A stretch of DNA of 64,000 nt from assembly GCF_058153355.1 (NCBI RefSeq), contig NZ_CM177019.1; one strand, written 5' to 3'. Each line of letters starts with the position of its first letter. Position 1 is the stretch's first letter. Positions 23,214-29,301 of this stretch are shown here, piece after piece. The position numbers were made by a program, and so were the translations under genes. The notes beneath the pieces are model-generated. The model had not been told where the DNA came from. It made no database searches and worked only from the letters and a program-made list of their open reading frames with translations.

Positions 23214-25451
23214 GTGGACTGGCTTCTTGATGTTTTTGCAACCTGGCTATATGGCTTAAAAATAATCGCGATAACGTTAGCGGTCATCATGTTCATCAGC
23301 GGGCTGGACGATTTTTTTATTGATGTCGTCTACTGGGTACGCCGCATTAAACGCAAGTTGAGTGTTTATCGCCGCTACCCGCGAATGAGTTACCGCGAAC
23401 TGTATAAACCAGATGAAAAACCGTTAGCGATTATGGTTCCGGCGTGGAATGAAACGGGCGTCATCGGCAATATGGCCGAGCTGGCGGCGACCACGCTCGA
23501 CTATGAAAACTATCATATCTTTGTTGGCACCTACCCCAACGACCCAGATACTCAGCGTGATGTTGACGAAGTGTGCGCTCGCTTCCCAAACGTGCATAAG
23601 GTAGTCTGCGCGCGTCCTGGCCCCACCAGCAAAGCCGACTGCCTGAACAACGTGCTGGACGCCATCACCCAGTTTGAGCGTAGCGCCAATTTCGCTTTTG
23701 CTGGTTTTATTCTGCATGACGCCGAAGACGTAATTTCACCGATGGAATTGCGTCTGTTCAACTATCTGGTCGAGCGTAAAGATCTGATTCAGATCCCGGT
23801 ATACCCATTCGAACGCGAATGGACGCACTTCACCAGCATGACTTACATTGATGAGTTTTCAGAACTGCATGGCAAAGATGTTCCGGTGCGTGAAGCCCTC
23901 GCCGGACAGGTGCCCAGCGCAGGCGTCGGTACTTGTTTCAGCCGCCGCGCCGTGACCGCACTGTTAGCTGACGGTGACGGTATTGCTTTCGACGTGCAGA
24001 GTCTTACTGAAGATTACGACATTGGTTTCCGCCTGAAAGAAAAAGGTATGACGGAAATTTTTGTCCGTTTTCCGGTGGTGGACGAAGCCAAAGAACGCGA
24101 GCAGCGTAAATTTTTACAGCACGCGCGGACGTCAAACATGATCTGCGTGCGCGAATATTTCCCCGATACCTTTTCGACGGCGGTTCGACAAAAATCTCGC
24201 TGGATCATCGGCATTGTTTTCCAGGGCTTTAAAACCCATAAATGGACCTCCAGCCTGACGCTGAACTACTTTCTCTGGCGCGACCGCAAAGGGGCAATCA
24301 GTAACTTTGTCAGCTTCCTCGCGATGCTGGTGATGATCCAGCTTTTGCTGTTACTGGCGTATGAAAGTTTGTGGCCCGATGCCTGGCATTTCCTTTCTAT
24401 TTTCAGCGGCAGCACATGGTTAATGACCCTGCTGTGGCTAAACTTTGGTTTGATGGTTAACCGCATCGTGCAGCGGGTGATTTTTGTCACTGGCTACTAC
24501 GGTCTGACGCAGGGGCTGCTATCTGTCCTGCGTCTTTTCTGGGGCAACCTGATTAACTTTATGGCTAACTGGCGCGCATTAAAACAGGTACTTCAACATG
24601 GCGATCCACGTCGCGTGGCGTGGGATAAAACAACGCATGACTTCCCCAGCGTGACTGGCGATACCCGCTCGCTGCGCCCGTTAGGTCAAATTCTGCTGGA
24701 AAATCAGGTCATCACTGAAGAACAACTCGATACAGCACTGCGTAATCGCGTCGAAGGTCTACGCCTGGGCGGTTCAATGCTGATGCAGGGGCTGATTAGC
24801 GCCGAGCAACTGGCACAGGCGCTGGCAGAGCAAAACGGCGTGGCGTGGGAATCTATCGATGCCTGGCAGATCCCTTCTTCGCTGATTGCCGCGATGCCGG
24901 CCTCCGTGGCGCTGCATTATGCAGTACTGCCGCTGCGTCTGGAAAATGATGAGTTAATTGTCGGCAGTGAAGATGGTATTGACCCGGTTTCGCTGGCAGC
25001 CCTGACGCGTAAAGTCGGACGCAAAGTGCGTTACGTCATTGTTCTGCGGGGACAAATTGTCACGGGGTTACGTCACTGGTATGCACGCCGACGCGGTCAC
25101 GATCCGCGGGCAATGTTGTACAATGCGGTTCAGCATCAGTGGCTCACGGAACAGCAGGCCGGTGAAATCTGGCGGCAATATGTGCCGCATCAGTTCCTGT
25201 TCGCCGAAATACTGACCACGCTCGGTCATATTAATCGTTCAGCAATTAACGTGTTGTTATTGCGCCATGAACGCAGTTCTCTGCCGCTCGGCAAGTTTTT
25301 GGTCACCGAAGGCGTTATCAGCCAGGAAACGTTGGATCGCGTCCTGACAATTCAACGCGAATTACAAGTTTCGATGCAATCACTATTACTCAAAGCAGGT
25401 TTAAACACAGAACAGGTTGCGCAACTGGAGTCCGAAAATGAAGGAGAATAA
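23214..25451 (+). CDS. nfrB: Phage N4 adsorption protein NfrB: inner-membrane glycosyltransferase with C-terminal c-di-GMP-binding domain, 745 aa (GTG start)
   Basis: 745-aa ORF (V/M)DWLLDVFATWLYGLKIIAITLAV; GT2-like N-terminal half; length and synteny match NfrB. Confidence 0.93.
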   Translation: MDWLLDVFATWLYGLKIIAITLAVIMFISGLDDFFIDVVYWVRRIKRKLSVYRRYPRMSYRELYKPDEKPLAIMVPAWNETGVIGNMAELAATTLDYENYHIFVGTYPNDPDTQRDVDEVCARFPNVHKVVCARPGPTSKADCLNNVLDAITQFERSANFAFAGFILHDAEDVISPMELRLFNYLVERKDLIQIPVYPFEREWTHFTSMTYIDEFSELHGKDVPVREALAGQVPSAGVGTCFSRRAVTALLADGDGIAFDVQSLTEDYDIGFRLKEKGMTEIFVRFPVVDEAKEREQRKFLQHARTSNMICVREYFPDTFSTAVRQKSRWIIGIVFQGFKTHKWTSSLTLNYFLWRDRKGAISNFVSFLAMLVMIQLLLLLAYESLWPDAWHFLSIFSGSTWLMTLLWLNFGLMVNRIVQRVIFVTGYYGLTQGLLSVLRLFWGNLINFMANWRALKQVLQHGDPRRVAWDKTTHDFPSVTGDTRSLRPLGQILLENQVITEEQLDTALRNRVEGLRLGGSMLMQGLISAEQLAQALAEQNGVAWESIDAWQIPSSLIAAMPASVALHYAVLPLRLENDELIVGSEDGIDPVSLAALTRKVGRKVRYVIVLRGQIVTGLRHWYARRRGHDPRAMLYNAVQHQWLTEQQAGEIWRQYVPHQFLFAEILTTLGHINRSAINVLLLRHERSSLPLGKFLVTEGVISQETLDRVLTIQRELQVSMQSLLLKAGLNTEQVAQLESENEGE

Positions 25452-28410: not shown

Positions 28411-29301
28411 ATGCGTAAGTTCATTTTCGTATTGCTGACACTGCTTTTGGTCAGCCCTTTTTCCTTTGCGATGAAAGGTATTATCTGGCAACCACAAAAC
28501 CGTGATAGTCAGGTTACCGATACCCAGTGGCAGGGGCTGATGAGTCAGTTACGTTTGCAAGGCTTCGATACCCTGGTTTTACAATGGACCCGTTACGGCG
28601 ATGCATTCACCCAGCCAGAACAGCGCGCGTTATTGTTTAAGCGTGCCGCAGCTGCGCAACAGGCTGGCCTGAAGCTGATTGTCGGGCTGAATGCCGATCC
28701 GGAATTTTTTATGCACCAGAAACAGTCATCCGCGGCGCTGGAAAGCTATCTTAATCGCCTGCTGGCTGCCGATCTCCAGCAAGCCAGCTTATGGAGCGCC
28801 GTACCTGGCGTAACGCCGGATGGCTGGTACATCAGCGCGGAAATTGACGACCTGAACTGGCGCAGCGAAGCCGCCCGTCAACCTTTGCTGACATGGTTAA
28901 ACAACGCGCAGCGGCTGATTAGCGATGTTTCAGCAAAACCGGTTTATATCAGTAGTTTTTTCGCCGGAAACATGTCGCCCGATGGCTATCGCCAACTGCT
29001 GGAACACGTTAAAGCAACCGGCGTTAATGTCTGGGTACAGGATGGCAGCGGCGTGGATAAACTTACTGCTGAACAGCGTGAACGTTATCTACAGGCCAGC
29101 GCCGATTGCCAAAGCTCCGCCCCAGCAAGCGGCATTGTTTATGAACTGTTTGTCGCCGGCAAAGGCAAAACCTTTACAGCGAAACCGAAACCGGATGCAG
29201 AGATCGCCTCGCTGTTAGCGAAACGTTCCTCTTGCGGTAAAGACACGCTCTATTTCTCTCTGCGCTATTTGCCCGTCGCGCACGGCATTCTCGAGTATTA
29301 A
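28411..29301 (+). CDS. ybcH: Periplasmic protein YbcH, 296 aa, co-operonic with nfrBA
   Basis: 296-aa ORF with signal peptide MRKFIFVLLTLLLVSPFSFA starting immediately after the nfrA stop. Confidence 0.9.
   Translation: MRKFIFVLLTLLLVSPFSFAMKGIIWQPQNRDSQVTDTQWQGLMSQLRLQGFDTLVLQWTRYGDAFTQPEQRALLFKRAAAAQQAGLKLIVGLNADPEFFMHQKQSSAALESYLNRLLAADLQQASLWSAVPGVTPDGWYISAEIDDLNWRSEAARQPLLTWLNNAQRLISDVSAKPVYISSFFAGNMSPDGYRQLLEHVKATGVNVWVQDGSGVDKLTAEQRERYLQASADCQSSAPASGIVYELFVAGKGKTFTAKPKPDAEIASLLAKRSSCGKDTLYFSLRYLPVAHGILEY

Follow-up and report, generated by a model that had tools for sequence, protein, structure and literature searches.

The segment between positions 23214 and 29301 (+ strand) of NZ_CM177019.1 (assembly GCF_058153355.1), analyzed within a window of 64,000 nucleotides, is with near certainty the Escherichia coli nfrB-nfrA-ybcH operon, encoding a synthase-dependent exopolysaccharide machine. 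Here, we report that YbcH, the product of its third gene, has the appearance of an enzyme that cuts sugar chains in the periplasm and not that of a passive scaffold, a proposal that rests on a structural model and on residue conservation. This is the only new point; published work already covers the operon, the overlap between its first two genes, its gating by cyclic di-GMP (c-di-GMP), and the view of YbcH as a possible third subunit. For the favored explanation as a whole, combining the identity of the operon and its machine with translational coupling and an enzymatic YbcH, we estimate a probability of about 0.88.

The nfrBA-ybcH operon was described by Junkermeier and Hengge (mBio 2021; PMC8669469), who also drew the 14-nt overlap. 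NfrB polymerizes an N-acetylmannosamine (ManNAc)-based glycan from WecB-made UDP-ManNAc, NfrA exports this glycan, and glycan and NfrA jointly constitute the receptor of phage N4 (PMC8669469, PMC8669472). N4 infection needs the glycosyltransferase active site of NfrB and WecB, but not the remaining enterobacterial common antigen (ECA) pathway; the MshEN domain of K-12 NfrB binds c-di-GMP with a dissociation constant of about 1 µM, DgcJ is the local c-di-GMP source activating NfrB, and nfr expression depends on FlhDC and FliA (PMC8669469). Sellner et al. (2021) presented the same model, termed the polymer 'NGR' glycan, and compared NfrA with PgaA, BcsC, and AlgE; they also attributed the supply of the epimerase in E. 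coli to wecB (nfrC) of the ECA cluster (PMC8669472). An initial reading of the window, made from the sequence alone, had named the operon as both the phage N4 receptor system and a c-di-GMP-gated exopolysaccharide machine, and in this it agrees with what the two 2021 papers already contain.

YbcH is poorly understood and was treated as a third, non-essential component (PMC8669469). It was called a 'putative scaffold' with a signal sequence that 'lacks a cleavage site' (PMC8669469), and the scaffold designation appears again in PMC10211494. The sequence-only reading had asked whether a ybcH deletion has any effect, and the published answer is divided: N4 plaque formation was unchanged, while motility was only partly restored in a pdeH ycgR background (PMC8669469), and a 2025 preprint using droplet random-barcode transposon sequencing (RB-TnSeq) counts ybcH among the genes that contribute in part to sensitivity toward N4. 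These partial deletion phenotypes imply that YbcH is accessory rather than essential.

YbcH is predicted to be a glycosidase-type barrel with an invariant glutamate pair

A domain search, which the sequence-only reading had proposed for YbcH, placed the protein in the DUF4434 family (PF14488) far above the gathering score (233 versus 30 bits; amino acids 21 to 291 aligned with profile positions 1 to 282 of 283). YbcH also matched the NCBIfam profile NF007404 over its full length, with 519 bits versus a cut-off of 344. DUF4434 comprises 796 representatives after clustering at 50% identity. An AlphaFold2 model of YbcH, computed from an alignment of 38 YbcH relatives, reached a mean predicted local distance difference test (pLDDT) score of 92.6 and a predicted template modeling (pTM) score of 0.90. 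It consists of an N-terminal helix (amino acids 2 to 12), a low-confidence linker, and eight strand-helix units forming a (beta/alpha)8 barrel. All 60 of the 60 fold matches listed for this model were glycoside hydrolases or close glycosidase-fold relatives.

In the model, E144 is situated in strand 4 (138 to 146) and E245 ends strand 7 (241 to 245). Neither glutamate varies among the 38 close relatives, among 16 more distant homologues from syntenic loci (27 to 50% identity), or among 43 sequences that represent the whole family and reach down to 23% identity. The only invariant columns in the alignment of these 43 sequences are Q27, Q58, W59, G92, E144, S181, Q210, E245, and F247, and most of these residues, Q27, Q58, W59, and Q210 included, are no more than two positions away from the C-terminal end of a strand. 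Sequence searches of the PDB with YbcH alone and with a narrow profile returned nothing; a profile of the wider family matched entry 4h41 (E 4.6e-8) with both glutamates aligned. This entry is BT_0435 of Bacteroides thetaiotaomicron, which carries the structural-genomics label 'putative alpha-L-fucosidase' and is 15% identical to YbcH. To our knowledge, BT_0435 is not part of an nfr-type cluster, and the literature searched contained no paper mentioning BT_0435 or PDB 4h41. Pfam searches with the 38 family members at E values up to 10 gave marginal GH5 matches only, the best being to Cellulase/GH5 (E 0.04) in 3 of the 38.

We propose that YbcH is a clan GH-A-type (beta/alpha)8 enzyme, with E144 as the putative acid/base and E245 as the putative nucleophile of a catalytic pair. 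Members of the '4/7' glycoside hydrolase (GH) clan GH-A, such as GH5 mannanases, GH42, and GH164, likewise possess a (beta/alpha)8 barrel with one Glu on strand 4 and another at the end of strand 7. YbcH might trim or clear the nascent polymer, as BcsZ, PslG, the C-terminal domain of PgaB, PelA, and AlgL do elsewhere. Because processing enzymes of the BcsZ, PslG, PelA, and AlgL type are typically accessory, a role as hydrolase fits the accessory, partial phenotypes of ybcH mutants.

Export of YbcH, proposed in the sequence-only reading from a signal peptide, is supported by the signal sequence MRKFIFVLLTLLLVSPFSFA|M, which has a positively charged n-region (K/R), a hydrophobic core, no Cys at position +1, and no lipobox. 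Across the alignment, Ala occupies position -1 of the site A20|M21 in 38 of 38 sequences, and A, S, V, or T occupies position -3 in 36 of 38. This conserved AxA pattern predicts cleavage and contradicts the statement in PMC8669469 that a signal peptidase site is lacking. With these signal features and small residues at -3 and -1, the sequence has the properties of a Sec-exported soluble periplasmic protein. C233 and C275 are near-invariant in the same alignment and fit a periplasmic disulfide. YbcH would thus leave the cytoplasm by way of a cleavable Sec signal peptide. Judged by the model and the alignments, the most likely role of the cleaved protein is that of a soluble enzyme in the periplasm with the Nfr glycan as its substrate. 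The more specific prediction that it is an active hydrolase of this glycan is one that we favor by a modest measure.

ybcH belongs to a conserved gene module

To survey ybcH loci, one genome per species was scanned, yielding 69 loci; the scan was seeded from YbcH, and its counts cover nfr loci with a YbcH relative. The loci derive from Escherichia, other Enterobacterales, Dyella, Rhodanobacter, Polynucleobacter, Jeongeupia, Silvimonas, Aeromonas, Halomonas, Pseudomonas alcaligenes, Vibrio, and one Elusimicrobiaceae genome. In all 69, an nfrA homologue directly precedes the ybcH homologue, and an nfrB homologue precedes nfrA wherever the contig is long enough. The order GT2 (glycosyltransferase family 2) synthase, NfrA_C porin, DUF4434 protein is kept in three of three more distant family members with 25 to 29% identity as well. 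Four loci (L069, L071, L072, and L074) encode a synthase without MshEN and retain the genes for the NfrA porin and the DUF4434 protein. The conserved nfrA-ybcH order speaks for YbcH being part of the core of the module, no less constant than the c-di-GMP switch, and supports the earlier suggestion of a third component.

A gene for a WecB-type UDP-N-acetylglucosamine 2-epimerase is located directly upstream of nfrB on the same strand, within about 1.1 kb, in 42 of the 62 loci with enough upstream sequence (L010, L012, most of L020 to L070, and L071 to L074). It was absent from the fetched locus in 19 cases, mostly Enterobacterales, with Escherichia among them; Enterobacterales are known to obtain this enzyme from wecB of the ECA cluster (PMC8669472). 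The presence of the epimerase gene in 42 of 62 loci provides independent genomic support for a ManNAc polymer. This raises the possibility, to which we give even odds, of a module composed of epimerase, GT2 synthase, NfrA porin, and DUF4434 hydrolase, in which MshEN would be optional and the epimerase gene would have been lost in enterobacteria able to borrow WecB from the ECA pathway; DUF4434 would then be an uncharacterized glycoside hydrolase family whose founding activity is periplasmic cleavage or processing of the Nfr/NGR ManNAc polymer.

Several observations on individual loci and proteins were made alongside. The NfrB-type synthases without MshEN are short, with 472 to 554 amino acids where genes were called (L071, L072, and L074), and L071 and L072 also carry a DUF2334 gene upstream. 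In L073, the gene at positions 6969 to 8429, directly after homologues of nfrB (with MshEN) and nfrA, encodes a DUF4434 protein whose C terminus carries a SPOR (peptidoglycan-binding) domain. Fusions of YbcH to VgrG (P0121) and to a prePAAR/PAAR/Rhs N terminus (P0122), found in a public protein collection, were considered as type VI effectors with a DUF4434 toxin and rejected, their YbcH part being 98% identical to E. coli YbcH; it begins at residue 50 to 54, inside the barrel. In P0138, the N-terminal tetratricopeptide repeat (TPR) region of NfrA is joined to YbcH, with the DUF4434 match extending over amino acids 422 to 590. By their sequences, P0121, P0122, and P0138 look like chimeras left by deletions or rearrangements in which the nfr locus of some E. 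coli strains was destroyed.

Junction geometry is conserved and points to translational coupling

The sequence-only reading had placed the nfrA start 14 nt inside the end of nfrB and the ybcH start at the base after the nfrA stop. The open reading frame (ORF) list and the junction sequences confirm both, the second being read directly as TAAATG. At each junction, the start overlaps or abuts the preceding stop and a Shine-Dalgarno motif lies inside the upstream gene (Table 1). Measured from the nfrA stop, the ybcH start is offset by -1 nt in 33 of the 69 loci, by -4 in 11, by 0 in 8, by -7 in 6, by +5 in 3, and by +2 in 1, so that it falls between -7 and +5 nt in 62 loci. The other seven belong to the most distant members of the set, for which automatic choice of the start codon is unreliable. 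GGAG or GAGG is present upstream of the ybcH start in most junctions, and the motif also encodes conserved C-terminal residues of NfrA. The distance between nfrB and nfrA is -4 (an ATGA overlap) in 34 loci; apart from Citrobacter amalonaticus, only three Escherichia loci show the 14-nt form. An arrangement allowing termination-reinitiation is thus conserved at these junctions.

Tight junctions are common among operon genes and, taken as geometry alone, unremarkable, and bacterial operons in general most often show distances of -4, -1, and 0 nt. Compact packing, with nfrA and ybcH each translated independently from its own Shine-Dalgarno site, therefore has to be weighed against coupling. Such packing is compatible with a GGAG at workable spacing before both internal starts and with an nfrB/nfrA overlap whose length differs among taxa (-14, -4, 0, and -37). 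Predicted RNA structures speak against coupling itself: at the two junctions, their stability does not exceed that of shuffled sequences (z -0.5 and -1.4), which leaves masking of the start sites unsupported. A hairpin pairing the ybcH AUG with upstream sequence was likewise not significant relative to shuffles and was dropped as evidence. At the level of the transcript, a terminator scan detected short, unconvincing terminator-like matches within the genes and no canonical intrinsic terminator after ybcH, so that read-through into envY is conceivable. However, spacing as tight as that seen between nfrA and ybcH in 62 of 69 loci, over several proteobacterial orders, is more than chance and counts against packing alone. 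The authors of PMC8669469 moreover placed a FLAG tag so as to spare nfrA translation initiation polar effects, although this was a precaution only. On balance, we consider independent translation in a merely compact operon rather unlikely and real translational coupling, as suggested by the geometry and its conservation, likely. nfrB, nfrA, and ybcH would share one transcript, and ribosomes ending nfrB or nfrA might restart at the overlapping or abutting start, keeping the subunits in proportion.

Scaffold, other enzyme, or unrelated neighbor

The published proposal holds that YbcH is a membrane-anchored scaffold that bridges NfrB and the TPR domain of NfrA. Beyond being stated in PMC8669469 and PMC10211494, where anchoring and bridging are asserted without experiment, this role is compatible with the phenotype, as an assembly helper could well be non-essential and produce partial effects. 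It also gains from the absence of the Asn-Glu motif, one of several points that weigh against an enzyme. Foldseek comparison of the YbcH model with the PDB gave weak similarity (E about 1e-5, TM about 0.5). At the Asn-Glu motif, which is classic for the acid/base Glu of clan GH-A, the sequence is S-A-E144-I-D-D with A143 in place of the Asn, and no GH-family Pfam match rises above threshold; 4h41 has S-G-E at the same position. Since the motif is missing, we file YbcH as GH-A-like and not as a GH-A member. The literature searched reports no hydrolase activity, either for YbcH or for any DUF4434 protein, and the authors of PMC8669469 regarded YbcH as a membrane-anchored scaffold without a signal peptidase site. 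Yet invariance of two glutamates and several polar residues near the C-terminal strand ends, down to 23% identity, is not what one would expect of a scaffold. In addition, the -3/-1 pattern present in 36 to 38 of 38 sequences predicts cleavage, and every one of the nearest structural matches is a glycosidase or a relative with a glycosidase fold. We therefore regard a scaffold as a doubtful, though not negligible, alternative to the predicted hydrolase.

YbcH could also be a carbohydrate-active enzyme with this fold that does not hydrolyze the Nfr glycan; it might transfer the glycan onto an envelope acceptor as a transglycosylase or act on peptidoglycan. The strict linkage to nfrA and nfrB suggests that the Nfr glycan is among its substrates, and we consider such a different activity improbable. 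By far the least probable reading is that ybcH is an unrelated neighbor with its own transcript and no part in Nfr function. Unaltered N4 plaque formation upon ybcH deletion is consistent with it, but it is at odds with the synteny in 69 of 69 and in 3 of 3 loci, some of them from very distant taxa, with the absence of any intergenic base between nfrA and ybcH, and with the partial effects of ybcH seen for motility suppression and in the droplet RB-TnSeq experiment on N4. Nor was a sigma-70-like promoter found inside nfrA on the + strand, and promoter-like matches were fewer than in shuffled sequences (6 versus 8.9). This reading is already largely refuted.

NfrB and NfrA carry the domains of a c-di-GMP-gated synthase and its porin

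NfrB and NfrA matched their NCBIfam profiles over full length (NF008411, 1332 bits versus a cut-off of 1170; NF007302, 1874 bits versus 1223). The domain search of NfrB substantiated its reading as a GT2-type glycosyltransferase with a C-terminal c-di-GMP-binding domain: Pfam GT2 families were followed by two copies of the MshE-type c-di-GMP motif (NF053729; E 1.4e-18) and the MshEN domain (PF05157; E 1.6e-13). The DxD, TED, and QxxRW signatures of processive GT2 synthases are present. We further inspected the residues mutated in PMC8669469 and found those for glycosyl transfer intact (D169 in HDAED, D267 in TEDYD, and W330 in QKSRW) and those for c-di-GMP binding (L490, G491, and L537) all present. 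NfrA contains TPR_19, TPR_14, and other TPR families, the C-terminal barrel domain NfrA_C, and an aromatic C terminus (...GVHW), in keeping with its designation as a TPR plus beta-barrel outer membrane protein.

The operon is intact and ordinary for E. coli

The nfrA start was set at ATG 25438, which gives the K-12 length; the mechanical ORF opens at an in-frame TTG at 25417. With this choice, the three products have 745, 990, and 296 amino acids, the same lengths as in K-12 MG1655. The operon shares 97 to 98% nucleotide identity and 98 to 99.6% protein identity with that of K-12, differing by 3 amino acid substitutions in NfrB, 20 in NfrA, and 6 in YbcH (29 in total). Ratios of synonymous to non-synonymous codon changes are 42:3 for nfrB, 64:20 for nfrA, and 23:6 for ybcH. 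Equal lengths and mostly synonymous changes indicate that there are no frameshifts or premature stops and that the three genes are under purifying selection; together with the NCBIfam scores, they bear out the intactness claimed in the sequence-only reading. Gene order, GTG start, 14-nt overlap, and TAAATG junction are also common to K-12 nfrBA-ybcH (b0569 to b0567), which differs in lacking an AT-rich insertion of about 1.1 kb between cusS and the nfrB upstream region. The operon matched 5243 of 5426 complete E. coli genomes, and at least 80% of it was found in one place in 5048 (93%); a few genomes carry insertion sequence elements in the nfr operon. An intact nfr operon is the normal state in E. 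coli.

Table 1. Features of the nfr operon and its flanks in the window
Feature	Coordinates	Strand	Details
Conserved nfrB upstream region (promoter and 5' untranslated region)	23077-23213	+	137 bp; near-identical to K-12 by alignment; adjoins the end of the insertion
nfrB	23214-25451	+	GTG start; 745 amino acids; product begins MDWLLDVF; TAA 25449-25451; ORF list and direct sequence reading
NfrB GT2 catalytic domain	23421-24359	+	amino acids 70-382; Pfam PF13641 (E 3e-35) and PF13632 (E 2e-40)
NfrB c-di-GMP motifs and MshEN	24678-25097	+	amino acids 489-628; NF053729 at 489-540, Pfam MshEN at 542-628
nfrB/nfrA junction	25427-25451	+	GGAG 25427-25430, 7 nt before ATG 25438; overlap 25438-25451, 14 nt
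nfrA	25438-28410	+	ATG start; 990 amino acids; TAA 28408-28410; ORF list and direct sequence reading
NfrA_C barrel domain	27862-28368	+	amino acids 809-977; Pfam E 2e-67
nfrA/ybcH junction	28396-28413	+	GGAG 28396-28399 within the last nfrA codons, 11 nt upstream; TAAATG, zero bases between
ybcH	28411-29301	+	296 amino acids; signal peptide at 1-20, then predicted (beta/alpha)8 barrel
Hairpin after ybcH	29311-29339	+	RNA fold; 13 bp, 3-nt loop; 10 nt after ybcH stop; weak U tail, fails the terminator T-run rule
cusS			upstream flank, as in K-12
envY	29484-30245	+	downstream flank, as in K-12

Nfr in comparison with other exopolysaccharide systems

The Nfr machine resembles the cellulose system BcsA-BcsB-BcsZ-BcsC in having a c-di-GMP-gated inner membrane GT2 synthase, a TPR plus beta-barrel porin, and a predicted operon-encoded periplasmic glycoside hydrolase. 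It differs in that its c-di-GMP receptor is MshEN and not PilZ, that E. coli Nfr has no BcsB-like subunit, that its polymer is ManNAc-based, and that the predicted hydrolase is a DUF4434 triosephosphate isomerase (TIM) barrel instead of a GH8 (alpha/alpha)6 barrel. In the PgaABCD system, a GH153 domain forms the C terminus of PgaB, and PgaA is the porin; E. coli YbcH lacks a deacetylase domain, and the identity is about 9%.

The operon itself is an ordinary finding for E. coli and adds nothing to the 2021 papers beyond the YbcH hypothesis and the view of a four-gene module. If the YbcH hypothesis is true, Nfr shares the logic of synthase, porin, and hydrolase with the cellulose, Pel, Psl, poly-N-acetylglucosamine, and alginate systems, the small DUF4434 family can be assigned a function, and YbcH becomes an enzyme for cutting and analyzing the N4 receptor glycan.

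Transcript ends and the AT-rich insertion upstream of nfrB

In the region upstream of nfrB (23077 to 23213), no match to the sigma-28 consensus TAAAGTTT-N11-GCCGATAA with up to three mismatches was found, so that the published FliA dependence is not assignable to a site here, and a promoter scan of the same interval gave no sigma-70-like site. Rfam searches at E up to 1 over positions 21800 to 29700 returned zero matches. Downstream, the hairpin that follows the ybcH stop codon may possibly form the 3' end of the transcript.

The position of the operon directly downstream of an AT-rich islet, as pointed out in the sequence-only reading, is evident from the GC profile and from the alignment with K-12. 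GC content drops to 0.31 to 0.36 between about 22000 and 23000, and relative to K-12 the insertion of about 1.1 kb spans about 21948 to about 23076, extending the gap between cusS and nfrB from 149 bp in K-12 to 1245 bp here. It begins inside the last cusS codons, with CusS ending in ...GLPERE here and in ...TLPA in K-12. The insertion holds an ORF of 148 amino acids (22326 to 22772, + strand) without a Pfam match, and in other E. coli genomes hypothetical or SMI1/KNR4-family proteins are annotated at this spot.

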